This document shows, piece after piece, positions 37,972 through 57,599 of a DNA stretch of 64,000 nucleotides (the stretch's first letter is position 1; each line of letters opens with the position of its first letter). Location: contig JAZLMG010000063.1 of NCBI GenBank assembly GCA_045598585.1, positions 3,205-67,204 of the forward strand, read 5' to 3'. The DNA comes from Kiritimatiellia bacterium. Its GTDB lineage: Bacteria > Verrucomicrobiota > Kiritimatiellia > RFP12 > UBA1067. Made by a program: the position numbers and the translations under genes. The notes beneath the pieces were generated by a model that was not told where the DNA came from, did not search any database, and saw only the letters and a list, made by a program, of their open reading frames with translations.

Positions 37972-39024
37972 ATGCGCATCCTACAAGTAGCGACCGGATT
38001 ACAGAAGGCGAGTGGAGTGACGACTTTCGTCGAGAATGTCGTATCCGAACTTCGTGCCCTTGGACATGAAGTCGAGGTGCTTACGAAGAAGGACGATCCC
38101 TCTCTCACTTTAACTTCTACACTCTCACTTTTACACTCTTACGACATCGTCCATCTTCACGGGCTCTGGGATCCTTGGCTCCTTAAAATCGCTCTAAAAG
38201 TGCCGCGTGGACGCCTCGTTTGGTCGACACACGGCATGACCGCCCCCTGGTCGCTCCGCCACAAATGGTGGAAGAAGCTCCTCGTCTGGCATCTCGCCCA
38301 AAAGCCGCTTTTAAAGCGCGCGGCGCTTATCCACTCGACCGTCGAGAAAGAGCGCGAATGGAACGTGAATTTAGGTTTAGGTGTAGGGTCTAGGTGCAGA
38401 AGTCTTGTTGCACCTTTGGGAACTCATTTGCCGAAAGAAAAAACCGAATCTTCCGCTGTACACCTACACCTTGAACCTACGCCTAAAACTCTCCTCTTTG
38501 TAGGTCGTGTATATCCTGTTAAGGCGCTGGATCGTCTCATTGAGGCGTTCGTAAAAGCGAAGCCCGAAGGATGGTGCCTTCGCATTGTCGGGCCTGATCA
38601 AGCGGGCCACCAAGCTGAGTTGGAAGCTCTCTGCAAGCATCTTGGACTCAGCTCGGACGATTCGAAAATCGTTTTCGCCGGTCCTAAATTCGATTCTGAG
38701 CTCGATGCCGAGTACACTCGCTGCTCCGCCCTTGCACTCGTCTCCCATACCGAGAACTTCGGCGCAACTGTGGTCGACGCTATGGAGCACGGCAAGCCGG
38801 TTATCACCTCGACAAATACCCCATGGAAGGAAGTTGCCGATTTTGGCTGCGGCTGGTGGGTTGACAACGATGTCGAAACTCTCGCCTCGACCCTCAACTC
38901 AATATTCAACACTCCTACTTCAACACTGGAATCGATGGGCAAGCGCGGGAGAATGCTTGTCGAAGCGAAGTACACTTGGTCCGCTGTCGCCAAAACCCTT
39001 GTCTCCGCCTACTCCGCCTTATAA
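37972..39024 (+). CDS. GT4-family (GT-B fold) glycosyltransferase, first gene of the glycan locus
   Basis: MRILQVATGL... N-terminus, LLFVGR, and an E..FG.....EAM-type motif (TENFGATVVDAMEHGKPVI). Confidence 0.8.
   Translation: MRILQVATGLQKASGVTTFVENVVSELRALGHEVEVLTKKDDPSLTLTSTLSLLHSYDIVHLHGLWDPWLLKIALKVPRGRLVWSTHGMTAPWSLRHKWWKKLLVWHLAQKPLLKRAALIHSTVEKEREWNVNLGLGVGSRCRSLVAPLGTHLPKEKTESSAVHLHLEPTPKTLLFVGRVYPVKALDRLIEAFVKAKPEGWCLRIVGPDQAGHQAELEALCKHLGLSSDDSKIVFAGPKFDSELDAEYTRCSALALVSHTENFGATVVDAMEHGKPVITSTNTPWKEVADFGCGWWVDNDVETLASTLNSIFNTPTSTLESMGKRGRMLVEAKYTWSAVAKTLVSAYSAL
38370..38487 (+). repeat. 27-bp imperfect inverted repeats (21/27) flanking 64 bp inside the GT4 coding sequence
   Basis: Left arm TTTAGGTTTAGGTGTAGGGTCTAGGTG (38370-38396) against the reverse complement of CACCTACACCTTGAACCTACGCCTAAA (38461-38487). 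There is an inner hairpin GGTGCA..TGCACC at 38393-38414. Confidence 0.6.
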
Positions 39025-39161
39025 GCTCATTCCCACCGATATACCTGCCATTCGCTTCGAACACCGACGAAAGAGTCGTATCTAAAGTTTTCGCAAACGT
39101 TAGAATTGACTTTGGTGGATGGGGTTGAATGTTGATTCAAACTTCGCTATGGTCAAAGTGA

Positions 39162-39180
39162 CCGAAATTTGGTATAATAT
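39162..39180 (+). promoter_or_regulatory. locus-specific promoter copy D (CCGAAATTTGGTATAATAT)
   Basis: Same 19-mer context as copies B and C; it drives only the GT2-like stub. Confidence 0.5.
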
Positions 39181-39665: not shown

Positions 39666-40022
39666 ATGACCGCCAACCGCCGCATAGCCCTGGACATCGT
39701 TGCCACATACATGCGCCGGAGAAGCTTAGCTTCGAAGGGTAGGTGCTGCATGCACGACGAAGTCGCCCACAAGGGCCTGCGCAGATCGCGGCCTTCGGCT
39801 ATTTCCGCATTGCTCCAATCCGGGTATGCGTTGGTGTTGGGGTTGTTGGTTGCGCGGTGGGGTTTGCAGGTGCTTGGACATGTTGGTTATGGATTGTATG
39901 GCGTCGTCGGTGGGCTGACTGTTTTGATTCCATTCCTCCTTCTTCATCCTATCTCCCCCATCCCCAACACCGCGCCATCGGGTTTCGTGATTGGTGGTAT
40001 ATCACCGCGAAATTTGGTATAA
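39666..40022 (+). pseudogene. 5' fragment of a wzx-like flippase gene, interrupted by ~110 bp of unrelated sequence
   Basis: MTANRRIALDIVATY ... GYALVLGLLVARWGLQVLGHVGYGLYGVVGGL aligns to the intact Wzx N-terminus at 56058 (MTKSQRIVLNTIVSYGR..LGLFSSRWILKGLGVDDFGVFGVVGG) and, at the nucleotide level, to the stub at 51392. The frame then decays. Confidence 0.55.
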
Positions 40023-40101
40023 TAGTGGTCGTAAAATGAGAAGGACGATATACGATTATCACCAATTGACGCGGCGTGGATACACTTGCCGTGGAGCGGG
40101 A
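40005..40101 (+). promoter_or_regulatory. promoter + conserved leader module, copy B (upstream of the 814-aa methyltransferase)
   Basis: CCGCGAAATTTGGTATAATA; ATGAGAAGGACGATA at 40036; hairpin GGCGTG(40073-78)/CAC-tt-GCC(40083-90); then CGTGGAGCGGGA. Confidence 0.55.
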
Positions 40102-43512: not shown

Positions 43513-44304
43513 ATGCGATGTAAGGCTATAGATCAGTTTGTATCCGAAGTGATAGGCGTCATTGAGGCAGAACAAAAGAATCATCCGGAGGATGGCGCGG
43601 AGTTCTTTTTCCGTGGTGAGAGTTGTAATTATAGGCACCGTGGGGATCCTATGGCAGAGCTGGATGCTCAAATCCCCTGCTATGTAGATCGCGAAGAGGT
43701 ATGGCGTAAAAACGAACGCGAACTCTATCATGAGGCGCTGCGGCTGAATGTTGCATCGTTTCATGAGGATCGAACGATGGTAGAACGTATCTCGCGGATG
43801 CAGCACTATGGTCTTCCGACGCGTTTTGCGGACGCATCAACGAGCGCATTTGTAGCATTGCACTTTGCGCTTGGTGGAGGCAATCTTGATGTCGCAGGAC
43901 GCATGAAAGATTCTGAGGATGGCTTTGTGCGTGTGATGAAAGTCGCCAAGCGTAAGATGAAGACTTTTACCAGCGACATTATAACAGCGATTGCGCACTT
44001 GCCGCTTGTGAAGCAGGGAGATGTCAATCCGAGTGTCGTCAATGGATTGGAAGTCTTGCGTTATGAAGTTACAAACGAGCGCCCCGGTTTTTCGATGAAT
44101 ATTCGGCAGGATGATTCGGCTAAGTTGAAGGAGCTAGAAACGCAACTTCGCAAAGAGATTCAGCAAGTATGGGCCTTTAAGCCTATTTGGAATACGCCGC
44201 GAATTCGCAATCAGAGCGGACTTGCTGGATGCCGGCTTTATCAGCGCTATACACTCTTCGTATTCCTTGATAATACGCGGCAATTCCGCAACGAAATAGG
44301 TTGA
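43513..44304 (+). CDS. FRG-domain protein with the C-terminus replaced by junction sequence
   Basis: FFFRGES...MQHYGLPTRFADASTSAFVALHFAL matches the FRG-domain signature (FRGq...aQHyGlPTrlLDwT). Sensible sequence ends near IRNQSGLA (~44224), where it meets the IS remnant on the opposite strand. Confidence 0.65.
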   Translation: MRCKAIDQFVSEVIGVIEAEQKNHPEDGAEFFFRGESCNYRHRGDPMAELDAQIPCYVDREEVWRKNERELYHEALRLNVASFHEDRTMVERISRMQHYGLPTRFADASTSAFVALHFALGGGNLDVAGRMKDSEDGFVRVMKVAKRKMKTFTSDIITAIAHLPLVKQGDVNPSVVNGLEVLRYEVTNERPGFSMNIRQDDSAKLKELETQLRKEIQQVWAFKPIWNTPRIRNQSGLAGCRLYQRYTLFVFLDNTRQFRNEIG

Positions 44305-44559
44305 ACAAGGGCATCCTACCGATACCCATAGCTTACGCGCGTTCTCGAGATCTTCGTCCGAGTAAGTCTTTCCTCTGCCTTTTCTTTCTCGATAACGGAT
44401 ATTCCCGGTCATAAGTTTGATGACATACTTCCTGGTGAAGTCCAAAGTCTCGCAAACTTCATTGAGAATGCGAGTTCGTTTTGCTGTAGACGATACGGCG
44501 TAAGCACGACGTTTTTCGGCTACATATTCGGCGATTGATTTTCTTGACATTGTGCACAT
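44256..44559 (-). mobile_element. IS remnant: N-terminal HTH part (~100 aa) of a DDE (rve-type) transposase; the catalytic domain is missing
   Basis: MSRKSIAEYVAEKRRAYAVSSTAKRTRILNEVCETLDFTRKYVIKLM...RKGRGKTYSDEDLENARKLWVSVGCPCSTYFVAELP follows the usual HTH - RGRP-xY - C(G)KRL pattern of such transposases. No DDE region follows. GTGCAC-containing repeats lie at 44553-44640. Confidence 0.55.
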
Positions 44560-46970: not shown

Positions 46971-48005
46971 ATGACAAATCTAGAGCTTTTTAAATATTCT
47001 GGTAAAAATCCTGAACCGTTGATAGATAAAGCTTATGTTCGTGATGAAGAATGCATTATTCCTATATCGCTATCAATAAAAGACTCTTCAGCAAAATCTT
47101 TGTTAGTTGAGAAGAATACTCGTCTTATACAGTTGATATCAACCTTTTGTTATTTAAGGGAGAAAGGTCGAGAGGATGATTGTATTGAAGTTCACGATTT
47201 GATTAGCGAGGTTATTGAAATTCTTACTAAAATAGAAAATATTAATCTTTCGCCATTTTCTCAGTTTTTCTTAGTGTATGATACGACTTATGATTCGTTT
47301 CTTGAGTATAGTCTTGAGGAGCAGAAGAATTTCATTCGTAAAATACTTTGCGCCTATTGTGATAAAAGGCATTCAATATATTTATCGCATGGATATACTA
47401 ATACGATTCTTCAGGTTGTTAAAGATAGCTATTCTCATAAAGGTAATTCAACGGCGGGTATTGATAAAGTAAAAAAGATATTAAATAATAATGGATTTCG
47501 CTATAAGGAAAAGGTTGACGATATAGGCGATAAATATTATTTCTTTCCGGATAAAGGCGGTTCGAATTTGTTTTCTAAATTTGTTAAAGAGCATAAACTC
47601 AAAGCCAAGTTTGTTAGTAGCAGGCAGGGGAAGCTTCCTGATATAGTATTGCGATATAAAGACGAATATTACATTATTGAGTTGAAGCATATTAAATCTT
47701 CGGGAGGAGGACAAGATAAACAATTGAGCGAAATAATTGATTTTGTTGGTTCTTTTGAGGATGATAATTCCAAAGTGCATTTCGTCTCGTATCTAGATGG
47801 CCTATATTCAAATAAATTACACAATAATGATTTATGGTACAAAAAGAAGGCGCCTGACAAGTTGAGCAAAATTGGGAAGCAGTACGATTCAATAAAGAAG
47901 AACCTTGAAAAGAACAAAGGCAATTATTTCCTTAATACTAAAGGTCTTGAAAAATTCATGAGATTGCTAGTCGAAGGAAAGTTGGAGGAAAGTGCCAGTG
48001 AATAA
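46971..48005 (+). CDS. PD-(D/E)xK restriction endonuclease-like protein, paralog 1
   Basis: KLPDIVLRYKDEYYIIELKHIKSSGGGQDKQ gives a PD-x12-ExK motif. It aligns along its whole length with the next gene. Confidence 0.6.
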   Translation: MTNLELFKYSGKNPEPLIDKAYVRDEECIIPISLSIKDSSAKSLLVEKNTRLIQLISTFCYLREKGREDDCIEVHDLISEVIEILTKIENINLSPFSQFFLVYDTTYDSFLEYSLEEQKNFIRKILCAYCDKRHSIYLSHGYTNTILQVVKDSYSHKGNSTAGIDKVKKILNNNGFRYKEKVDDIGDKYYFFPDKGGSNLFSKFVKEHKLKAKFVSSRQGKLPDIVLRYKDEYYIIELKHIKSSGGGQDKQLSEIIDFVGSFEDDNSKVHFVSYLDGLYSNKLHNNDLWYKKKAPDKLSKIGKQYDSIKKNLEKNKGNYFLNTKGLEKFMRLLVEGKLEESASE

Positions 48006-48963
48006 TATAGATTTGTTTTTGTATTCCGGAGAACACCCCGAGCCGATTATCGATCCATACTATAATCGTGAGAAGGTTGTTATTCCTCTTTCTGCATTCC
48101 AAACAAATGAGTTAGTTGAGAAAAATGCTAGATTGATTCAGTTAATTACTGTTTTCTCTTACTTTATTGGAGAAGGCAAGACACTGTCCAATCCTGATAT
48201 GCACGGTTTAATCGATGAGGTAATAAAAATCTTAAAGGAGACGGAAGGCATAAACTTATCTCCTTTTTCTCAATTCTTTATGGTCTATAACTCCACCTAT
48301 GGTTCGTTTCTGACATATGGATATAAGGAGCAGCGCCAGTTTATTTACGAGATGCTTCATCTTTATGTAAAAGAACGGCACAGTATGTATCTAAGTCATG
48401 GATATTCTAACAGCACACTTCAAGTTGTTTGTGACAATTATTCGCATAAGAGAAATTCTAAGACTACTATTATAAAAATCTGTGATCTTCTTAATGGTGT
48501 TGGGTTTATCCATGATAGTGATGGAGTAGGACTCTTATCTAAAAATTATTATTTTTTACCCGACAAAGGTGATAAGAAAGCATTTGATTTATTTAAGCAA
48601 CAGCATGGTGTTGTTATGGAGTCCGCTAAGCATGAGCAGAACAAATTGCCTGATATGGTTCTAGTTGATAATGATGAGTGCTATGTTATAGAAATGAAGA
48701 GTATGAAAGGCGTTGGTGGTGGACAAGACAAACAGCTGACAGAGGTTATTAACTTCATTCGATATTCTGAAGCTGATCAACATGTGCATTATGTAGTTTT
48801 TCTTGACGGAGAGTATTCAAATATTCTACATGCTGCTATCAAGCAACCTAAAGTTGAGTGCCAATATAAAGATATAATTTCTTGTCTTCAAATGAATCCT
48901 GGAAATTACTTTCTTAACTCCTCTGGATTTAGTAAGTTTATACACGAGCGATTAAATGTATAA
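47992..48963 (+). CDS. PD-(D/E)xK restriction endonuclease-like protein, paralog 2
   Basis: KLPDMVLVDNDECYVIEMKSMKGVGGGQDKQ. It shares blocks with paralog 1 (EKNxRLIQLI, INLSPFSQFF, YLSHGY, LQVVxDxYSHK, YYFxPDKG). The GTG start has a GGAGGA RBS and overlaps paralog 1 by 14 nt. Confidence 0.6.
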   Translation: MPVNNIDLFLYSGEHPEPIIDPYYNREKVVIPLSAFQTNELVEKNARLIQLITVFSYFIGEGKTLSNPDMHGLIDEVIKILKETEGINLSPFSQFFMVYNSTYGSFLTYGYKEQRQFIYEMLHLYVKERHSMYLSHGYSNSTLQVVCDNYSHKRNSKTTIIKICDLLNGVGFIHDSDGVGLLSKNYYFLPDKGDKKAFDLFKQQHGVVMESAKHEQNKLPDMVLVDNDECYVIEMKSMKGVGGGQDKQLTEVINFIRYSEADQHVHYVVFLDGEYSNILHAAIKQPKVECQYKDIISCLQMNPGNYFLNSSGFSKFIHERLNV

Positions 48964-49004
48964 AGATTTTTCTCCTTTTTTTACGTTTTGCTATGGTCTA
49001 ATAG

Positions 49005-49099
49005 TCCGAAATTTGGTATAATATAAGCATAAGATGAGGAAGACGATAGAGATTTATCGCCAATTGACACGGTGCAGATTTGCACTCCGTGGAGCGGGA
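49005..49099 (+). promoter_or_regulatory. promoter + conserved leader module, copy C (upstream of the 724-aa gene)
   Basis: TCCGAAATTTGGTATAATA; ATGAGGAAGACGATA at 49034; hairpin GGTGCA(49071-76)/TGCAC-t-CC(49081-88); then CGTGGAGCGGGA. Confidence 0.55.
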
Positions 49100-49196: not shown

Positions 49197-51371
49197 GTGC
49201 TTGTGAATCAAAATGTTATAAAACGAATTTTGTCACGTATGACAAAAGAGGAATTCGAATCTCTTGTGCCAATCGTGCTAAAGGCGGCGAGTGGAATGGT
49301 TCCAGTGTGTGTGGACGGATCGAACGATGGTTCCGTTGATTATCATTTGTATAATGGCTTGAACAAGTCACGAATAGTGGTGCAAACTACGGATAACTGG
49401 CAGAACCTTGAGCGCAAGATTAAGGGTAATATGTCGGATGTTGCTGGGCGGGCAGATATAGACATATATTATATGATGGTAAAAGAGGTTGTGTCGAATG
49501 ATGTAAAAGAAAGATTAGAACAGCAGGCTCTTGATAAACATCACTTGATGATGAAGATTCTGGGGGCTAACGAGGTTTCAAGTTTTATCCTCAGATATGA
49601 TTTGATCGATGATTTGTTTAGGTTATCGCACACCGTATCCGACGAGCCAAGTGGTAAGCGAATTCAGCAACCTGAAGTGATGCTACACATGTACTTGTCA
49701 ATGAGTAGTGATAGTAGGGATCTCAATCAAGAGATGATTGACTCAACATTGCGATTCATTCTTTTCAATAAACCACAACAGGGGCGGCAAGAGCTGGCGA
49801 ATGAAGTATTGCAATACTTGCGCCTCCCAGAGCTCAGGCAGTTAGATGTAGTTGGACGTATCGAATCCTTGAGATCTAAAGGTGTATTTGATGAATGTGA
49901 AGGACAGCTAGATTTGTCCTCCGCTGCGAGAAAAGAAATTGATCAATTGGTAGGTGATTATGATGCGGAGTTATCCCTATTTTCCGACATTTGCGTTTCA
50001 ACGATAAAGGAAATTGCAGGTAGAGATTTTGCAATTTCGAATCAAAAAGAGTTTGCGACGTTATTAGCGCGATGCTATGTCTCTTGTTATCTTGATGTAG
50101 TAAAAAGGTCTGATTATGAATTGGATAGCGAGATATTTGCGTCTCCGGTGCTTAATTCGCCATTGACACAAATCAAGTCAATGCTGTTGAAAGATGGTAT
50201 CGCGCAACATAAGTTAGATGAATGCGTGAACACACTTGTTCTTCGTGCGTCAGGTAATTCGTTGGTGAAACGTTTAGCACAATCTGTGGTTTATGTTGCG
50301 ATTCGGGATTATTCAAGCCGCAATTCGCCAGCCGTGTTTAACACTGATAATTGGGGCTCGGTATCAGTTTACGTTGATGCGGCTGCTCTAATGCCATTTC
50401 TCGTATCCTCGCTTTTTGAGCAAGGTAGATTTGCTCGAAATGAGACATGTTTGGCAATTTCTACGATTCAGAAGACTCGATGCAAGTTGTTAGTGCCATT
50501 CGATTATGTTGATGAGGCATCGTCTCATCTGATTGCTGCGAGATGGTATTGTGAAAATGAGGAAGGCTTTGAGGCGGACTTTGAATTTGTTCCGAACGCA
50601 TATGTCTCCTCGTACTACAAGATGAAAAAGTGTGGTATCGAAGTTCCTGATACCCTGAGAGAATATCTTAGCTTGTTTTGCGAGGATCTATTCAAGTTTG
50701 ATAGCAGTCAGTATTCCTACAAATCAGTTGTCAGAGCATCGATTTCGACGTTAGCGCGATATTATGGCGTTGAGATGACGGAATTTAAGGACGCTTTAGA
50801 CGAGCAAGATATTGCTTATTGTGACGAGTGGAAAGAATTCCTGAAAAAGAAGAAAACTGACTGGCGACTTATAAGGCATGACGCATCAGTTTTGTCACAT
50901 ATATATCACAAAGGGAGAACGCAATTGGGTAGAAACGTTCTCGTTACTTGGGATAATTCGCTTCTTAGGGCTGACCGGACACTTCGTAGGGATATCTGGA
51001 TAGTGACCCCTGTTGATATGGCGGACTTGGTAAGTGTGTCGTTTAATGATGAAAATTATGACTTGATGGCATTGTCGCATGCTGTTGCGTCGGTTACGAC
51101 GTCGAGCAAGGAAATGGCTTATGGGCACATCCTTGAGAAAATAATGCTTATGTGCAAAGATAAAAAGATGGATTGGAAATGTAGGTTGGAGATACAGAGA
51201 ATAAGGGACGAGTTCTTTAGTTATTGTGATTCGAATGATAGTAAAGATTGTAGCATCGAATCTGAGGAATGCGAAAAGCGTACCATGGAGATACTTGATA
51301 AATCTGGCTTCTCCGAAGAAGAGTCAGGAGTGGAGTTGACAGGCGGAGAGTCTCAAGATATCAACGAGTGA
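49197..51371 (+). CDS. 724-aa orphan: Mrr/REase-like N-terminal domain, wHTH-like middle, PIN-like C-terminal region
   Basis: FESLVPIVLKAASGMVPVCVDGSNDGSVDY...RIVVQTT resembles the Mrr_cat pattern but lacks the Lys. The C-terminal region contains VSVYVDAAALMPFL, LLVPFDYVDEASSHL and NVLVTWDNSLL, which resemble PIN acidic motifs. There is no P-loop. The start is ambiguous (GTG at 49197 or 49203, ATG at 49239). Confidence 0.45.
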   Translation: MLVNQNVIKRILSRMTKEEFESLVPIVLKAASGMVPVCVDGSNDGSVDYHLYNGLNKSRIVVQTTDNWQNLERKIKGNMSDVAGRADIDIYYMMVKEVVSNDVKERLEQQALDKHHLMMKILGANEVSSFILRYDLIDDLFRLSHTVSDEPSGKRIQQPEVMLHMYLSMSSDSRDLNQEMIDSTLRFILFNKPQQGRQELANEVLQYLRLPELRQLDVVGRIESLRSKGVFDECEGQLDLSSAARKEIDQLVGDYDAELSLFSDICVSTIKEIAGRDFAISNQKEFATLLARCYVSCYLDVVKRSDYELDSEIFASPVLNSPLTQIKSMLLKDGIAQHKLDECVNTLVLRASGNSLVKRLAQSVVYVAIRDYSSRNSPAVFNTDNWGSVSVYVDAAALMPFLVSSLFEQGRFARNETCLAISTIQKTRCKLLVPFDYVDEASSHLIAARWYCENEEGFEADFEFVPNAYVSSYYKMKKCGIEVPDTLREYLSLFCEDLFKFDSSQYSYKSVVRASISTLARYYGVEMTEFKDALDEQDIAYCDEWKEFLKKKKTDWRLIRHDASVLSHIYHKGRTQLGRNVLVTWDNSLLRADRTLRRDIWIVTPVDMADLVSVSFNDENYDLMALSHAVASVTTSSKEMAYGHILEKIMLMCKDKKMDWKCRLEIQRIRDEFFSYCDSNDSKDCSIESEECEKRTMEILDKSGFSEEESGVELTGGESQDINE

Positions 51372-51391: not shown

Positions 51392-51502
51392 ATGACCGCA
51401 AATCGTCGCATATTCCTGAATATCATTGCCACATACGGGCGCTCCCTGTATGCGTTGGTGATTGGGGTTGTTGCCGGGCGGAGGACTTTTATGTCGAGAT
51501 GA
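51392..51502 (+). pseudogene. second 5' stub of the wzx-like flippase gene (30 codons, then out-of-family sequence and a stop)
   Basis: MTANRRIFLNIIATYGRSLYALVIGVVAGR shows clear nucleotide similarity to 39666-39710 plus 39826-39860 and matches the intact Wzx N-terminus at 56058. Confidence 0.5.
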
Positions 51503-51517: not shown

Positions 51518-52399
51518 ATGAGTGAATATACATGCTTTATTGATGAGAGCGGGTGTAAGCAACGTGCGCGGACCCCGATTGCCGACCCTTTTGACATTGG
51601 GGTTGCGGTGGGAGTTGTCGTTCCTTCTGAAAAGGAAAAGAGTTTTAGTCAAGAAATTGCATCAGCTATTCTTTCCTTGGATGTTGAACTTAAGGATGAT
51701 ACGCATGTTACAGATGTTTCTTCTGTTTTGCAAGAGCCTGTTCGGAAGGGAGTATATGATGTAGTTCGCCGTTACGAAGCTGAATTGTATTGGCAAGCAA
51801 TATCCGCTTCCGGATTTCAGCGGTGGGAAGTTGGCATAACTGATGCCGCAGTCAATTCTGCGAAGAATGACTCCAATCCTAATATTGCAATAGTCGGCAA
51901 TCCTGAAAATCCGAGTGCTCATGCAACATTGATCGCAGGAGTGATGGAGAAAGCACTTGCATGTTATGATCAGGTAATGTTTATGACGGATGAGGTTGAT
52001 GCGAAGATATTGAATGAGGCTCAGAATGAAGTTGATGAAGTATTTCGATCCGGCCCTACTACTTATACCGTTAACGCTTATGATAAATGTGCAAGAACAA
52101 GGTTGACGGGGAAAATTGTCAGTACTTGCATAGGGCTTGAGCCTGTTGCTGAAAAAAAATGGGATTTGAAGATTCTTCCCAAGAACAATGGAGGTATTCT
52201 CGCAGCCGATGTTATAGCTAATGCGCTATTATATCATTTGAATGCGCATGTTAAATCGGGAGGGGAGACGTTGAATGATAAGGCCGCAATCAGAGGCTTT
52301 GATCTGGCTGAGTTATGTCGTTGCGCAGAGGGTGGTTGTCCTGATATTGGAGATACTCTTTATGCATTGCGGAAGTGCACGGGAGGTGTTGATGCATGA
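51518..52399 (+). CDS. DUF3800-family protein
   Basis: The N-terminus YTCFIDESG is the DUF3800 hallmark. GGGGAGGGG RBS. Its stop overlaps the next start (ATGA). Confidence 0.65.
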   Translation: MSEYTCFIDESGCKQRARTPIADPFDIGVAVGVVVPSEKEKSFSQEIASAILSLDVELKDDTHVTDVSSVLQEPVRKGVYDVVRRYEAELYWQAISASGFQRWEVGITDAAVNSAKNDSNPNIAIVGNPENPSAHATLIAGVMEKALACYDQVMFMTDEVDAKILNEAQNEVDEVFRSGPTTYTVNAYDKCARTRLTGKIVSTCIGLEPVAEKKWDLKILPKNNGGILAADVIANALLYHLNAHVKSGGETLNDKAAIRGFDLAELCRCAEGGCPDIGDTLYALRKCTGGVDA

Positions 52400-53106
52400 A
52401 AGCATTTTGTTCGATTCTAGCAGGTGGCGTTGGAAAGCGTATGGGCGGAGAGCTGCCGAAGCAGTTCATTCCGCTTAAGGGTGTGCCGATCATCATTCGC
52501 ACGATTCGCCGCGTTTTGGCGTGTGAAGAGTTTACTGCAGTTGTTGTTGCTATTCATCCCGAGTGGGAGACGTACTTCTTTGAGATGCTCTCCAAGTATG
52601 CGATTGATCTTTCGCGTGTCGTCATTTGCTACGGTGGCGCGGAGCGGCACGACTCGATTCTCAATACTCTCGCTGCGGCAAAAGCGAAGTTCGACGTCGG
52701 CGAAGAAGATATCGTTGTCGTTCATGATGCGGTGCGACCGTTTGTGAGCGCGGCGGTCTTGAAGGAGAGTACCTCTGCTGCATCGCTGTACGGTGCGTGT
52801 GTGGCAACGCTTCCTGCCGTTGACACCATGTTGGTTGTCAAAGACGGCATTGTGGTTGATGTCCCCGATCGTTCGAAGCTTTACAACGGGCAAGCGCCGG
52901 ATAGTGCACGTCTTTTGTTGCTCGAGCGAGCGATCCTCTCTCTCACGGCGGAGGAGCGGAAGGTGATTACGGGAACTGCGCAGATTTGTGTCGTGAAGGG
53001 GATTCCGGTGAAAGCGATTCCCGGCAACCCGAACAATATCAAAATCACAACACCTCACGATCTTGAGGTTGGGGAACGAATTTTGGCAGCACTGGGGGAG
53101 GACTGA
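52396..53106 (+). CDS. IspD/TarI-family pentitol-phosphate (ribitol-5-P-type) cytidylyltransferase
   Basis: ILAGGVGKRMGGELPKQFIPLKGVPII N-terminal signature, and VHDAVRPF. Confidence 0.8.
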   Translation: MKAFCSILAGGVGKRMGGELPKQFIPLKGVPIIIRTIRRVLACEEFTAVVVAIHPEWETYFFEMLSKYAIDLSRVVICYGGAERHDSILNTLAAAKAKFDVGEEDIVVVHDAVRPFVSAAVLKESTSAASLYGACVATLPAVDTMLVVKDGIVVDVPDRSKLYNGQAPDSARLLLLERAILSLTAEERKVITGTAQICVVKGIPVKAIPGNPNNIKITTPHDLEVGERILAALGED

Positions 53107-53109
53107 GCG

Positions 53110-54108
53110 ATGAAAGCTTTGGTACTAGATGCTATTGAACAATTAAACTACAAGGATGTTCCGACGCCAACGCCGAAGGCGGGCGAGGTTTTGCTTAAAG
53201 TCAAAGCCTGCGGAATTTGTTCGAGCGACTTTGATCGTTGTCTGAAAACGGGGACTTATCACTTCCCGACAATCCCGGGACATGAATTTTCCGGGCAAAT
53301 TGCCGCGGTAGGTGATGGCGTTGATGCGTCGCTTGTCGGCAAGCGCGCGGTCGTGTTGCCGCTTCTCCCCGACCATGCTTGCGATCAGTGTCAGATTGAA
53401 GCCTATGCGCGATGCAAGAATTATAACTATCATGGTTCGCGGTGCGACGGGGCTTTCGCGGAGTATTTGGCAACGCCGGTCTGGAATGTTCAGACCTTTG
53501 ACGATTCGCTTGACTACAAAGTCGCGGCGCTTTGTGAACCCGCGGCAGTTGCGTACCATGGCGTTAGCGCGGCAAATCTCAAGTCAGGAATGAAGACGCT
53601 TGTCGTCGGCACGGGCGCAATCGGTATTATGGTCGGGCTCTGGGCGCGCGAGCAGGGTGCGAATGTCGTTTTCTCTTGTCGCAAAGAGCGTAAGCGTGCG
53701 TTCATTGAATCATTCGGATTTACCGCGTTCTATGATGGTAAGGCTAATGATTTTGATGTCGCGCTTGAGTGCGTCGGGTCAGACGAGTCGCTTGAGATGG
53801 TGATTAATGCCGTCAAGCCCGCAGCGACTATCGTACTCGTCGGCAATCCCGATGGAGATAAGCAGATAGCCCGTAAGGTTTATTGGAAGATTCTTCGTTC
53901 AGAGTTGACCTTGAAAGGTGTTTGGAATTCGAGCTATACGTCGTCCAATAACGAGTGGCAGAAGGTTCTTCGCGCCTTCGAAAAGAACTCGGACGTCTTC
54001 GCTAAACTCATTACGCATACTTTCCCGCTCTCTGACGGGCTCGACGCATTTGCCGCGCTTAAGAATCCTCAGACATTCGCAGTGAAAGGAATGTTCGTCA
54101 ATGACTAA
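53110..54108 (+). CDS. Zn-dependent medium-chain dehydrogenase (TarJ-like pentulose-5-P reductase candidate)
   Basis: GICSSD..GHEFSG Zn-ligand pattern and a GTGAIG Rossmann motif. The functional call rests on its position between the cytidylyltransferase and the epimerase. Confidence 0.65.
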   Translation: MKALVLDAIEQLNYKDVPTPTPKAGEVLLKVKACGICSSDFDRCLKTGTYHFPTIPGHEFSGQIAAVGDGVDASLVGKRAVVLPLLPDHACDQCQIEAYARCKNYNYHGSRCDGAFAEYLATPVWNVQTFDDSLDYKVAALCEPAAVAYHGVSAANLKSGMKTLVVGTGAIGIMVGLWAREQGANVVFSCRKERKRAFIESFGFTAFYDGKANDFDVALECVGSDESLEMVINAVKPAATIVLVGNPDGDKQIARKVYWKILRSELTLKGVWNSSYTSSNNEWQKVLRAFEKNSDVFAKLITHTFPLSDGLDAFAALKNPQTFAVKGMFVND

Positions 54109-54775
54109 CCGTCCTTCAAAGATCAGCGCATCGATGATGTGTGCGCATCCGTTCCATATAGCGGAGAGTGTTCGTGCGCTTGAAGCGGCCGGTGTCGAGT
54201 ATCTACATCAGGATGTGATGGATGGTAAGTTCGTGCCGAATCTCGGCATGTCACTCGACCATATGAAGTTTCTTCGTAAGTCGACGAAGATCCCGTTTGA
54301 CTTCCATCTGATGACGCTCGATCCTGATAGCATCATTCCGATTCTTGAGCCGCGCGAAGGGGATATTCTGACGGTTCATTACGAAAGCACGTTCCAAGTT
54401 CAGCGCACGCTTGAGAATGCTCGTAAGTACGGCAGTAAAGTCTTTATTGCGATTAATCCGGCGACTTCGCTCTCCGCTCTCGATGAGGTTGTTCATTATG
54501 TTGACGGGGTTAATCTTTTGATGGTTAATCCGGGCTTTGCAGGGCAAAAGGCCGTTGCATCGTGTTTCAAGAAAGCGGAACGCCTCGCCGAGTTTCTGAA
54601 GAACTGCGACCGCGAATCGATTGACTGGGAGGTTGATGGTAATATTACATTCGAGAATGCACGAAAGTTGAAGGCTCTTGGCTCGAATATCTTTGTCGCT
54701 GGCACATCGAGCATCTTTAAGAATAATGTTGTTGATAATGATTTGTTGTCAAATCTGCGGAATTGTATTCAATGA
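54101..54775 (+). CDS. rpe: ribulose-phosphate 3-epimerase paralog
   Basis: SASMMCA.., HQDVMDGKFVPNL, DFHLM and VNPGFAGQK. Confidence 0.85.
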   Translation: MTNRPSKISASMMCAHPFHIAESVRALEAAGVEYLHQDVMDGKFVPNLGMSLDHMKFLRKSTKIPFDFHLMTLDPDSIIPILEPREGDILTVHYESTFQVQRTLENARKYGSKVFIAINPATSLSALDEVVHYVDGVNLLMVNPGFAGQKAVASCFKKAERLAEFLKNCDRESIDWEVDGNITFENARKLKALGSNIFVAGTSSIFKNNVVDNDLLSNLRNCIQ

Positions 54776-56058
54776 GTGTTTACAAAAAACTTCAATCGGT
54801 TAAATTTCTTCGTCGTGTCCATCAGTGGTATTGGACATTTATTCGACTCTTTTTGTTTGAGCGCTTTTTGCCATCGATGTTTTTGCGGATTAGATATGTC
54901 TTTATGCTAAAGAAAATTAGGAAATGCTATAAGAAACGCAAGCTTCGCGTAGTTTTCCTTTTAAGTAATCCATCGAAGTGGAAAGTTCAATCGCTATATG
55001 ACTTGATGAAGCAGTCGGATTTTTTCGATCCTCTAGTTGTTGCCACGCCTATGGATATCGAATGTCAGCAACCTATCGAAAATCAGCGTCTAGCAATGCA
55101 AAAAGTCGGAGAATTTTTGCAAGGACGAGGGATCGTATACGATTACGGGATTGATATGCAGTCAGGAAGATTAAAATCTCTACGAAAATTTAATCCTGAT
55201 ATTATTTGGTATACTCAACCTTGGCATATTGACGCGACACAAGCTCCGATGACTACATCGGCCTTTGCGCTATCATGTTATACGCCATATTTCGTGCAGA
55301 ATTATGGCGGATTGGATATGGATTGCCTTTTGCTGCTTCATAGGGAATTATGGCGTCATTTTACATTAAGTGAGAGATGGGCTGGGGAGTTTATGAATGC
55401 ACAAGGGGTCGCTCGCGCAGGTTCTGTTGTCGGATCCGGTCATCCGATGCTCGATGAATTCTATTTGCGTCGCGACGAGCATCTGAAGAGTGAATGTGTG
55501 ATATATGCGCCTCATTTCTCGTGCAATATCGTTGAATGCTTCTCAACATTCTTGAAGAACGGCCGAGAGATTCTCGAATTGGCAAAATCGCATCCCGAAA
55601 TCAACTGGGTGTTTAAACCTCACCCGACATTGCGTTTCACGCTTGAGAATCATTGCGGCTGGACCAAGTCGGAAATCGATGCGTATTATAGCGAATGGGA
55701 AAAAATAGCGACTCCTTGTTACGATGGTAATTATGTTTCTCTATTTAAGCAATCTTGTGCGATGATAACAGATTGTGCATCGTTCTTGGTAGAATATGCT
55801 TGTACAGGCAATCCTATTATCCATCTTATATCTTCGAATGCCAAATATCAACCTCATCCAATAGCCGCCAAGCTGTTCGGATCTTATTATCAAGCGCGCA
55901 ATTGGGACGAGTTCACGAATCATTTTGAAGAAGTTGTTCTAAAGAAGAACGATTATAAGAAAGACGAGCGACTTTCGGCGGTAAGAGATATGCGGCTTCT
56001 TGATAATTATGCCGCGAAGAATATAATTGAGTATCTTGATAAGGAATTTTCGAAGTAA
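54763..56058 (+). CDS. CDP-alditol:poly(alditol phosphate) transferase (TagB/TagF family)
   Basis: VIYAPHF, FKPHP and MITDCASFLVEYACTGNPII resemble the TagF-family C-terminal motifs. An alternative start ATG at 54772 forms an ATGA overlap with rpe. Confidence 0.6.
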   Translation: MYSMSVYKKLQSVKFLRRVHQWYWTFIRLFLFERFLPSMFLRIRYVFMLKKIRKCYKKRKLRVVFLLSNPSKWKVQSLYDLMKQSDFFDPLVVATPMDIECQQPIENQRLAMQKVGEFLQGRGIVYDYGIDMQSGRLKSLRKFNPDIIWYTQPWHIDATQAPMTTSAFALSCYTPYFVQNYGGLDMDCLLLLHRELWRHFTLSERWAGEFMNAQGVARAGSVVGSGHPMLDEFYLRRDEHLKSECVIYAPHFSCNIVECFSTFLKNGREILELAKSHPEINWVFKPHPTLRFTLENHCGWTKSEIDAYYSEWEKIATPCYDGNYVSLFKQSCAMITDCASFLVEYACTGNPIIHLISSNAKYQPHPIAAKLFGSYYQARNWDEFTNHFEEVVLKKNDYKKDERLSAVRDMRLLDNYAAKNIIEYLDKEFSK

Positions 56059-57599
56059 TGACAAAGTCTCAGCGTATTGTTTTAAACACAATTGTCTCTT
56101 ATGGACGTACTGTTCTTTCTATGGCACTGGGGCTTTTCAGCTCGCGATGGATTCTAAAAGGACTTGGAGTTGATGACTTCGGCGTATTTGGTGTCGTAGG
56201 CGGAATTATGACATTTGTTACGATATTAAACAGCTTGCTTTCATCTTCAGTTTCACGCTATTATGCGCATGCAATTGGTGAGGCTGCAGCTGAAAATGTC
56301 GAATCGAATGAAAACCTTGAGAGATGGTTTAATTCGGCTCTAACGATTCACTGGATATTGCCTATTATACTCGTTCTGATTGGATACCCGGTAGGTGTAT
56401 ATGCCTTAGGACATTGGTTACAGATTCCCGTTGGTAGAGAGAATGCTTGCATATGGATATTACGATTGTCAATGTTGACATCTTTTTTTCATATGGTGAG
56501 TGTTCCGTATATTTCAATGTATATGGCGAAACAGTTGATCGCGGAGTTGTCTATTTGGAGTGTTGCAACAACTTTTACGAACTTCGGCATTGCTTATTGG
56601 ATGCTCTCGTTTAATGGAGATCGATTGATTATGTTTGCTGCATTGACAGCAATCATGCCTTCAATAATTCTTCTTATCCAGGTTTGGAGGGCTCGCTCGC
56701 AATTTGCGATGTGTAGAGTTCGATTCAGATATATGTTTGATTTTAGCCGCTTGTCTAAAATATTCAGCTTTGCATTCTGGGATGCGTTCGGTTGGCTTGG
56801 TATGACAGTACGAGATAATGGTTCGGTTCTCGTTTTAAATCACTATTACGGCACGAGTTTAAACGCTGCATATAGTTTGGCACATCGAGTGATTTCGTAT
56901 ACGACTTCGTTATCCGCGTCTATAAACGGAGCGCTACAGCCGGCAATAACGACTTCCGTTGGTGAAGGTAAACTGGACGAGGCGAAAAGTTTGGCGTTTA
57001 AGAGTTGTAAATTCGCGACACTGATGATTCTTTTCTTTGCAGTTCCGGTTATTGTGGAAATTGACGAGTTGCTATATCTGTGGCTTCAAGAGCCGCCGGC
57101 ATACACAGCAACATTTTGCCGCTTGGTTTTAATTTCGTTAGTATTGCAGCATTTGGGTTGGGGGCATCAGATAATTATGGTAGCCATCGGGAAAATCGGC
57201 ATGTTGCAATTTATATTGGCTTCTATTTGTTGTTCGGGACTATTGTTTATGATTGGGCTCATTTGGTTAGGATGTGGACCGGAAAGTATCGGCTATATGC
57301 TTATAATAGTGTTTGGTTTAATGATGATAACACGTGTTATATTTGCACGTAAGTACTTCGGGATGTCGTTACGATACTGGCTATGTAGAGTTTGTGTTCC
57401 GATATTGATAGTCGGATTCGTGTCATATTTAAGTTCCGCGATGTTTGCATTACAATTCAAGCAGTCCTTTCTTCGATTAATTGGTTCCGGGATTGTTTCT
57501 TCTTGTGTGATGATAGCATTATCTTTTACTTGGGTGTTGGATAAAGATGAGAAACGCATGATTTTATCTAAACTCAAAGCTCGCTTCTTTAAGAAGTAA
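56058..57599 (+). CDS. wzx: Wzx-type (MOP superfamily) polysaccharide flippase, intact copy
   Basis: About 12-14 TM segments with a Wzx-type N-terminus. ATGA overlap with the TagF-like gene. Confidence 0.75.
   Translation: MTKSQRIVLNTIVSYGRTVLSMALGLFSSRWILKGLGVDDFGVFGVVGGIMTFVTILNSLLSSSVSRYYAHAIGEAAAENVESNENLERWFNSALTIHWILPIILVLIGYPVGVYALGHWLQIPVGRENACIWILRLSMLTSFFHMVSVPYISMYMAKQLIAELSIWSVATTFTNFGIAYWMLSFNGDRLIMFAALTAIMPSIILLIQVWRARSQFAMCRVRFRYMFDFSRLSKIFSFAFWDAFGWLGMTVRDNGSVLVLNHYYGTSLNAAYSLAHRVISYTTSLSASINGALQPAITTSVGEGKLDEAKSLAFKSCKFATLMILFFAVPVIVEIDELLYLWLQEPPAYTATFCRLVLISLVLQHLGWGHQIIMVAIGKIGMLQFILASICCSGLLFMIGLIWLGCGPESIGYMLIIVFGLMMITRVIFARKYFGMSLRYWLCRVCVPILIVGFVSYLSSAMFALQFKQSFLRLIGSGIVSSCVMIALSFTWVLDKDEKRMILSKLKARFFKK

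Follow-up and report, generated by a model that had tools for sequence, protein, structure and literature searches.

Here, we present an analysis of one gene in a 64,000-nt stretch of DNA (the window) from an 81-kb NCBI contig of a Kiritimatiellia bacterium. The gene lies at 49197..51371 on the plus strand, within a low-GC island of ~11.5 kb (about 40.0-51.5 kb of the window). As judged from sequence and predicted structure, its product belongs to a rare, unnamed family that is a credible candidate for an immune nuclease, and in which a Mrr-type restriction endonuclease (REase)-like head and a winged helix are followed by a C-terminal domain that is probably PIN-like. The open reading frame (ORF) is uninterrupted, with 724 codons plus a stop codon, exactly as given in a preliminary description made from the DNA letters alone. 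All peptides quoted there were found in the protein: FESLVPIVLKAASG..VCVDGSNDGSVDY..RIVVQTT spans amino acids (aa) 20-65, VSVYVDAAAL aa 389-398, LLVPFDYVDEASSHL aa 431-445, and NVLVTWDNSLL aa 580-590, while the stretch thought to be a winged helix is aa 185-231. Because homologues at 49-50% identity align with the protein from residue 4 to about 710, the ORF is genuine and not a chance one. The GTG start is backed by this alignment. The deposited gene call is 691 aa long and begins at M34 (window position 49296), 33 codons downstream of the homology-backed start; because residues 4-33 are conserved in the homologues, this call is probably too short by these 33 codons, and a start at M34 would cut off the first helix of the REase domain. 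The gene has a GC content of 41.8%, compared with a mean of 40.3% for the island and 53.9% for window positions 1-39000, in line with its having been called AT-rich. Similarly, the reported lack of a nucleoside triphosphatase (NTPase) motif held, as the protein has no Walker A motif; in the family, such a motif occurs at chance level (4 of 99 members).

The family is rare and is seen only through exhaustive searching. A word-indexed search of 5.8 billion proteins returned the protein itself and two clusters at 49-50% identity, and nothing was added when this search was repeated with the profile of the 103-member family alignment. By contrast, an exhaustive hidden Markov model (HMM) search of 1.84 billion representatives returned 252 clusters at E≤1e-3, including 70 at E≤1e-30. 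Almost all of these clusters are 670-830 aa long and match end to end, arguing that the family is real. Most of the 20 clusters inspected are singletons (90%-identity clusters), and none has a name beyond "hypothetical protein". We found no relatives in E. coli genomes, PLSDB plasmids, or GenBank phage records using nucleotide and tblastn searches, and none in an alignment-derived pattern scan of the GTDB species representatives. In the family tree, which has two deep branches, the window protein falls in a small clade of three. Using PADLOC v2.0.0, the protein had no match at E≤1, and 60 family members gave only weak matches (E≥9e-5), with at most three members per model, to two Argonaute-associated TIR models (one with a REase domain), PDC-S02, PDC-M07B, and PDC-M15A. 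Likewise, no NCBIfam or PHROGs model matches the protein. These negative results are consistent with the earlier view that the protein corresponds to no named defence system. Sequence searches of the PDB with the full protein, the family profile, the consensus of the N-terminal domain, and the profile and consensus of the C-terminal core gave nothing significant, and targeted literature searches returned no account of a defence protein combining Mrr, winged-helix, and PIN domains. The NsnC inPIN fusions of Menshen and BREX-related accessory nucleases, which we considered from the literature, are different proteins. In the following, residue conservation is counted over the 103-member alignment, and structural statements derive from an AlphaFold2 (AF2) model built from 103 homologues (predicted local distance difference test score [pLDDT] 90.3, predicted template modeling score 0.88); a model built from three sequences was unusable (pLDDT 43.9).

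The N-terminal 150 residues (49197..49646, plus strand) form a Mrr-type PD-(D/E)xK domain, based on Pfam Mrr_cat matches, structure comparison, residue counts, and the AF2 model. Mrr_cat (PF04471) is the top Pfam match of the window protein, with 14.1 bits (E=0.051), below the cut-off of 21 bits; the family consensus scores above this cut-off with 28.8 bits (E=1.4e-6). Across 60 members, Mrr_cat matches 19 at E≤0.01 and 37 at E≤1. In the model, the head has the order alpha-beta-beta-beta-alpha-beta (helix 17-32, strands 35-38, 49-53, and 56-65, helix 71-83, and strand 90-95). Foldseek placed phage models named "Restriction endonuclease" at the top in BFVD (probability 1.0, 124-146 columns, root mean square deviation 3.5-4.5) and matched FokI and Can2 (0.94-0.97), BamHI, and the nuclease domains of MUS81 and FANCM in the PDB; searching with the entire 724-aa model kept the E-values modest (3e-3 or weaker). 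A REase fold is, accordingly, seen in the AF2 model as well as by Foldseek, and the REase-like head of the preliminary description is borne out. The Mrr signature DGxxDGGxD...Q is 88-95% conserved, with D44 and D48 in 98 members each, Q63 in 97, and K74 in 99, and D40 is also conserved. Of the catalytic D...(D/E/Q)-x-K triad, D48 and Q63 are kept and the Lys is absent. The replacement of this Lys by Thr (T65), noted previously for the window protein, extends to the whole family, in which the position is Thr in 57 members, Ser in 41, and Lys in none. K74 of the following helix might stand in for the lost lysine. Residue 78 on the helix of K74 is Asp in 96 of the 103 members and Asn in the window clade. 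Two family members weakly match Pfam NA-iREase1, which is a family of inactive REase domains; together with the family-wide loss of the QxK lysine, such occasional matches favour a sensor role for the head. At the same time, the strong conservation of acidic residues in the head and in the C-terminal domain speaks against either of them being a decayed relic.

The head is followed by a winged helix-turn-helix (49722..49919, plus strand; aa 176-241). The AF2 model has three helices (176-191, 197-207, and 212-227) and then a beta-hairpin (strands 231-234 and 237-240), with pLDDT values of 93-98. Profile matches are weak but concordant (cullin WH-B, E=0.0076; HARE-HTH, E=0.011; Mrr_N, E=0.017; AbiEi_4, E=0.017), and Foldseek matched the region to MarR, IclR, and MotA. 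The confident model and the agreement among these matches bear out the winged helix that had been suspected here. An all-helical connector (49920..50351, plus strand; aa 242-385) with scattered sub-threshold Pfam matches and no family assignment leads to the C-terminal domain. As winged helices of the Mrr_N and HARE-HTH kinds typically accompany Mrr-type nucleases, it could be argued that the protein is a divergent type IV (Mrr-like) enzyme, in which the N-terminal domain cuts via K74, the winged helix reads DNA (possibly modified DNA), and the C-terminal domain is a regulatory or oligomerization scaffold. Mrr_cat alone gives an above-threshold profile match, and the 93-99% conservation of D40, D44, D48, Q63, K74, and D78 is hard to square with a decayed site. 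However, the canonical Lys is missing in all 103 members, a few members match the inactive-REase family, and the C-terminal domain has the invariant residues E440 and N467 together with many near-invariant polar residues in an active-site-like arrangement. We, therefore, consider an enzyme of this type unlikely.

The C-terminal domain (50352..51056, plus strand; aa 386-620) is an alpha/beta domain with PIN-like motifs and order of elements, based on conservation, the AF2 model, and Pfam. The modeled order is b1-a-a-b2-a-[insert]-b3-a-a-b4-a-b5-a, in which the insert is helical and ~100 aa long (50559..50861, plus strand; aa 455-555), carries the invariant N467 in the motif S-x-N-A-F-V-S-H-Y, and weakly matches DUF499 (E=0.016). 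The candidate active site consists of D394, E440, H444, H561, D562, T584, D586, and D610, to which the insertion would add N467. D394 comes after b1, and E440 is within the helix that succeeds b2; the helix preceding b4 begins with D562, and b4 itself is followed by T584-x-D586. Position 394 is Asp in 94 members and Glu in 9; E440 is conserved in all 103, D562 in 102, T584 in 99, D586 in 101, and D610 in 92. E440 and N467 are the only two invariant residues of the family, and both are in this domain; D394, S396, V397, P400, Y437, H444, S465, H561, D562, T584, W585, D586, P605, and D610 are near-invariant, with the window clade having Ala, Ala, and Val at positions 396, 397, and 465. Both the counts and the model place a D-E-D-D set plus Thr/Ser at PIN positions. 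When the insertion was excised from the family consensus, PF01850 (PIN) was the sole match among 24,736 Pfam models (E=0.025, profile positions 1-105 of 120). Among 56 members treated in the same way, PIN_3 was found in two (E=0.066) and was the only family matched by more than one of them; the best E-value (0.0023) belonged to PIN_TASOR in a single member. The domain is followed by a C-terminal helical tail (51057..51368, plus strand; aa 621-724) with an acidic end modeled at low confidence and with conserved D647 and D659 columns.

Turning to the genomic contexts of the relatives, we found defence or mobile-element genes in 8 of 12 Pfam-annotated neighbourhoods (window included). This is a raw count, and it suggests that defence genes may be enriched around the family. 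AAA_15+AbiH, RelB/YafQ, and AbiEii are near the family gene in locus L001; a 945-aa reverse transcriptase, DUF4238, Fic, and PDDEXK_9 are near it in L005; it follows a type I hsdRMS locus in L099 and is at the end of a P2/HP1-like prophage in L093; and in L096 it is adjoined by a Mu-type transposase with SoFic, a DrmD homologue, and a DrmA/B-like fusion. An all-against-all comparison of neighbours revealed no conserved partner gene; only DISARM and GT4/polysaccharide genes recur, and the genes of ~290 aa found downstream in three loci are mutually unrelated. Nor did we find a VapBC-like antitoxin gene, as the 233-nt gap upstream of the window gene holds ORFs of at most 44 aa, none of which is common to the homologues.

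The other two of the eight neighbourhoods are lineages with class-1 DISARM (drmD-drmMI-drmA-drmB-drmC), a recurrent context; the gene set of this system is present in L098, L101, L105, and L115. In L098, the order on one strand is DrmD (E=0), DrmMI (E=0), a 646-aa protein, the family member, DrmA (9e-301), DrmB (2e-81), and DrmC (3e-85), with a 2-nt gap before drmA. This arrangement recurs in three metagenome contigs. In L098, L101, L102, and L105, the family gene follows drmMI and precedes drmA with gaps of 2-45 nt. In L010 and L115, the members of which are 31% identical, the order is C5 methyltransferase, DrmD, DrmMI, family member, two genes, DrmA, and DrmB. As a side observation, the 646-aa protein of L098 (8016-9956) is weakly similar to the C-terminal half of Lamassu LmuB and to PDC-M68B (5e-11 to 1e-8), and the L098 lineage may possibly carry a two-gene insert within its DISARM operon.

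These arrangements raise the question of whether the protein is an accessory or backup subunit of DISARM or restriction-modification complexes that, by analogy to PrrC and RloC, would stay latent until a phage inhibits these complexes; the window copy would then be an orphan. In support of this idea, the gene is directly between drmMI and drmA on the same strand in four loci (in L098 together with the gene for the 646-aa protein) and after drmMI in two others; DrmMI and the family protein diverge alike (~30% identity), suggesting co-inheritance; the DrmD homologue and the DrmA/B-like fusion adjoin the gene in L096; and the gene is downstream of hsdRMS in L099 and of a methyltransferase gene and two REase-like genes in the window. 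Moreover, DrmC, the candidate nuclease of class-1 DISARM, was reported to be dispensable for protection (bioRxiv 10.1101/2021.12.28.474362). On the other hand, the majority of the contexts, including the window, lack DISARM genes, the DISARM-linked members fall into more than one clade, the window gene comes with a promoter-like element and a 233-nt leader of its own, and the class-1 DISARM system studied in Serratia was described without such a gene (bioRxiv 10.1101/2021.12.28.474362). That the protein is such a subunit rather than an autonomous system, thus, appears improbable to us. As for the earlier proposal of a single-gene immune effector, the lack of a conserved partner and the frequent defence neighbours lend it support that is contextual only, and in some lineages the gene is part of DISARM operons.

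The second recurrent context consists of polysaccharide or GT4 genes, which are near five members of different lineages, i.e., the window (37972-39024 and 52396-57599), L001, L005, L012, and L116. This suggests that, in these bacteria, surface-polysaccharide loci are hot spots at which defence genes integrate. It also bears on a non-immune role, in which the protein would be a nuclease for a mobile element or for DNA repair or would have a function of the polysaccharide cluster. In the window, L001, L005, and L116, the copies are surrounded by genes for glycosyltransferases or polysaccharides, and the distant member in L012 has a GT4 glycosyltransferase gene beside it; in addition, one member is next to the Mu-type transposase, one is at the prophage end, and one is beside groES/groEL without defence genes. 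However, the family is spread sporadically, with mostly singleton clusters and no member in the GTDB pattern scan, E. coli, plasmids, or phages; the window gene is on a low-GC island, and surface-polysaccharide loci are themselves variable hot spots; and no plausible chemistry ties Mrr, winged-helix, and PIN-like domains to glycan synthesis. A non-immune role is, therefore, in our view quite improbable.

Weighing these observations, we consider the chances about even that the protein is a metal-dependent nuclease of the type used in defence against phages and other mobile genetic elements and carried on a horizontally acquired island. In this model, the Mrr-type domain and the adjacent winged helix would form a DNA-recognition head, which keeps the Mrr acidic and Gln residues with Thr/Ser at the catalytic Lys position and which would either still cut via K74 or bind a metal-DNA complex as a sensor. 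The C-terminal PIN-like domain would be the main catalytic effector and would cleave nucleic acid upon binding of foreign DNA by the head; its substrate could be either DNA, resulting in direct restriction, or RNA, resulting in abortive infection. In some lineages, the protein may have been recruited as an accessory or backup nuclease in class-1 DISARM operons or beside restriction-modification loci. The lack of an NTPase domain and of a conserved partner gene argues that the protein can act alone. In its most specific form, the model describes a one-protein anti-phage system, not described previously, in which a rewired Mrr head recognizes and a PIN-like domain supplemented with His and Asn cleaves, and which also serves as the nuclease arm of some class-1 DISARM systems; we advance this form tentatively and regard it as doubtful.

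Several findings weigh against a nuclease of this kind. First, the Lys is missing in every member, and the head may, therefore, be catalytically dead or use K74. Second, the PF01850 match of the excised consensus scores 15.6 bits against a cut-off of 23.6, and the PIN profile gave no match to the full-length proteins. Third, no PIN structure is among the top 50 of the PDB or BFVD in the whole-protein Foldseek search. Fourth, hhalign of the C-terminal domain against a VapC(fMet) alignment matched motif 1 only, over 10 columns (E=0.06-0.09, probability <1%); here, the target profile is narrow (Neff 2.1), and, when more diverse PIN genes were sought among the 4,876 ORFs of the fetched loci, only one turned up. 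Fifth, 4 of the 12 annotated neighbourhoods contain no recognizable defence genes. Finally, two near-invariant His residues and an invariant Asn are atypical for PIN sites, such that the domain could be another hydrolase. The PIN-like tail of the preliminary description is, thus, plausible: the acidic residues are near-invariant in all three of its motifs, to which we add D562 as a fourth that had been overlooked, and the order of elements fits, while Pfam remained below threshold, Foldseek returned no PIN structure, and hhalign was negative. On balance, we hold that the tail probably adopts a PIN-like fold.

The His and Asn residues and the Foldseek result also bear on the possibility that the C-terminal domain is not a nuclease but a binding or hydrolase module of the macro-like or another Rossmann type, with the protein sensing or processing a nucleotide-derived ligand. 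The profile of the C-terminal core repeatedly matches the motif SVAIPLLSTGIF of the alphavirus nsP3 macro domain (E=0.03-0.17). We rejected this likeness as spurious, because it covers only 40 residues, is not significant, and does not match in secondary structure. SVAIP opens a helix right after b1 in the AF2 model, as in PIN domains, whereas a macro domain has a strand followed by a Gly-rich loop; the consensus lacks the Gly-rich macro loops; and PIN-clan families are the most frequent and have the best E-value among the weak Pfam matches. A non-nuclease module of this kind, accordingly, seems very improbable.

A comparison to known systems helps to define what the family is. Like Mrr, the type IV enzyme of E. 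coli, the window protein has a Mrr_cat-like domain with DGGxD...Q and a winged helix of the HARE-HTH/Mrr_N type in one polypeptide without an NTPase, and the family is found in defence islands. Mrr is about 300 aa and has an N-terminal Mrr_N domain followed by Mrr_cat; here, the order is the opposite, 98 of the 103 members have Thr or Ser in place of the QxK lysine, and an additional ~480 residues harbour, among others, a further putative nuclease domain. The window protein itself, moreover, is below the Mrr_cat cut-off. The C-terminal domain shares with PIN nucleases (VapC, PF01850, clan CL0280, and their FEN and NYN relatives) four spaced acidic residues plus a Thr at the expected positions, a first motif (LDASVAIP) close to the PIN motif hhDTSVhI, and, apparently, five parallel strands alternating with helices. 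It differs from them in the ~100-residue helical insertion with its invariant Asn, the two near-invariant His residues, and its score under the Pfam threshold; and, unlike VapC toxins, it is fused to DNA-binding modules and has no adjoining antitoxin gene, rather than being a small stand-alone toxin. By these features, the family belongs neither to Mrr proper nor to PF01850 and resembles a fusion of both.

Regarding class-1 DISARM, the family gene is found inside the operon in at least two lineages and shares with the system the association with N6-adenine methyltransferases. However, the five genes that define the system do not include it, Drm genes are absent from the window, and most members are outside DISARM. 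The system was described with drmD, drmMI, and drmABC only (bioRxiv 10.1101/2021.12.28.474362). In Menshen, nucleic acids are sensed by repurposed REase- and PIN-fold modules in which a catalytic residue has been lost and to which an effector nuclease is fused (NsnA inREase and NsnC inPIN; PMC12065111). The head of the window protein resembles such inactive-REase sensors, i.e., NA-iREase1 of NACHT/NLR-like proteins and Menshen NsnA, in being a REase module with a lost catalytic residue; unlike in Menshen, acidic residues are kept in both domains, and there is neither a STAND or ABC ATPase nor a three-gene system nor a match to the PADLOC Menshen models. The location of a putative nuclease gene within or beside restriction-modification operons also recalls the anticodon nucleases PrrC and RloC and, by analogy, suggests a second-line or guard role. 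PrrC and RloC are encoded in restriction-modification loci, function as backup effectors, and have an ABC-ATPase-like N-terminal domain and a different nuclease domain; the window protein lacks the former, has another putative nuclease domain, and has no homology to them that we could find.

The surroundings of the gene in the window fit an acquired defence island. UvrC, encoded just 5' of the island, shares 86% identity with its counterpart in a Kiritimatiellia metagenome-assembled genome (MAG) from horse faeces and 70-80% with those in dozens of rumen and gut Kiritimatiellia MAGs. The island is flanked by a GT4 glycosyltransferase gene on one side and CDP-ribitol-type genes (IspD-like, E=3.8e-42) on the other, and we infer that it was acquired horizontally. 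It encodes three methyltransferases, i.e., N6/N4 DNA methyltransferases of 814 aa and 297 aa and an Eco57I-like methyltransferase, as well as a FRG-domain protein matching PADLOC PDC-S15 (7e-31) and a DUF4145 protein matching PD-T7-4 (3.7e-17). Downstream of the Eco57I-like methyltransferase gene are two tandem PD-(D/E)xK-like paralogs (46971-48005 and 47992-48963), which are 47% identical, weakly match BsuBI/PstI, Tsp45I, and NERD, and, by sequence, may form a heterodimeric type II enzyme. Searching the 64-kb window by tblastn with Drm proteins from L098 and L010, we found no Drm homologues. A 141-aa minus-strand ORF (44134-44559), which overlaps the 3' end of the FRG/PDC-S15 gene (43513-44304) and has no match in Pfam, PADLOC, or NCBIfam, may mark a rearrangement inside the island. 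Downstream of the island gene of interest, a 293-aa ORF without a family match (51518-52399, plus strand) overlaps the start of the IspD-like gene by 4 nt, arguing that it is probably part of the polysaccharide operon and not of the island; it adjoins no homologue of the window protein.

The gene is preceded by a promoter-like element and a conserved leader block (48987..49099, plus strand). The intergenic leader is 233 nt and contains the extended -10-like element TTGGTATAATA at 49013-49023; because this gap lacks an ORF of more than 44 aa and carries the element, the earlier wording that the gene has its own leader is justified. Allowing one mismatch, the 11-mer TTGGTATAATA has nine copies in the window against 0.39 expected, all on the plus strand (23680, 33169, 35810, 39169, 39559, 40014, 45785, 49013, and 55786) and the majority just 5' of ORF starts. 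The 11-mer probably represents the consensus of extended -10 promoters in the Kiritimatiellia host. A 70-nt part of the leader (49030-49099) is repeated 5' of the first island gene, which encodes the 814-aa methyltransferase, and the block 48987-49099 is a direct repeat of 39995-40101 and 39143-39180 (D1, D2, and D7; 74-87% identity). None of the other 126 loci has a copy of this block. A hairpin with compensatory changes is common to both leader copies; the z-scores for leader RNA folding (-0.86 and -0.46) are not significant, and the leader region has no Rfam match. In addition, an imperfect direct repeat (D3, 80%; D6, 70%) brackets the island as seen in the GC profile. Its right copy (51392..51489, plus strand) starts 21 nt past the stop codon of the gene, and its left copy (39666-39865) is the start of a 118-aa ORF (MTANRRIALDIVATY...). 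The repeats look like a duplicated gene fragment of the polysaccharide locus that marks the island borders.

If active, the protein would represent a new single-protein nuclease architecture among prokaryotic immune effectors, consisting of a Mrr-like head, a winged helix, and a PIN-like tail. Some class-1 DISARM operons, in which DrmC is reportedly dispensable, would also gain a concrete candidate for their accessory nuclease. For the PD-(D/E)xK domains, the family-wide loss of the Mrr lysine with the acidic residues kept makes this family a clean test case for distinguishing migration of the active site from conversion to a sensor. Finally, the window illustrates that gut Kiritimatiellia, which are uncultured and little studied, carry compact defence islands within surface-polysaccharide loci.

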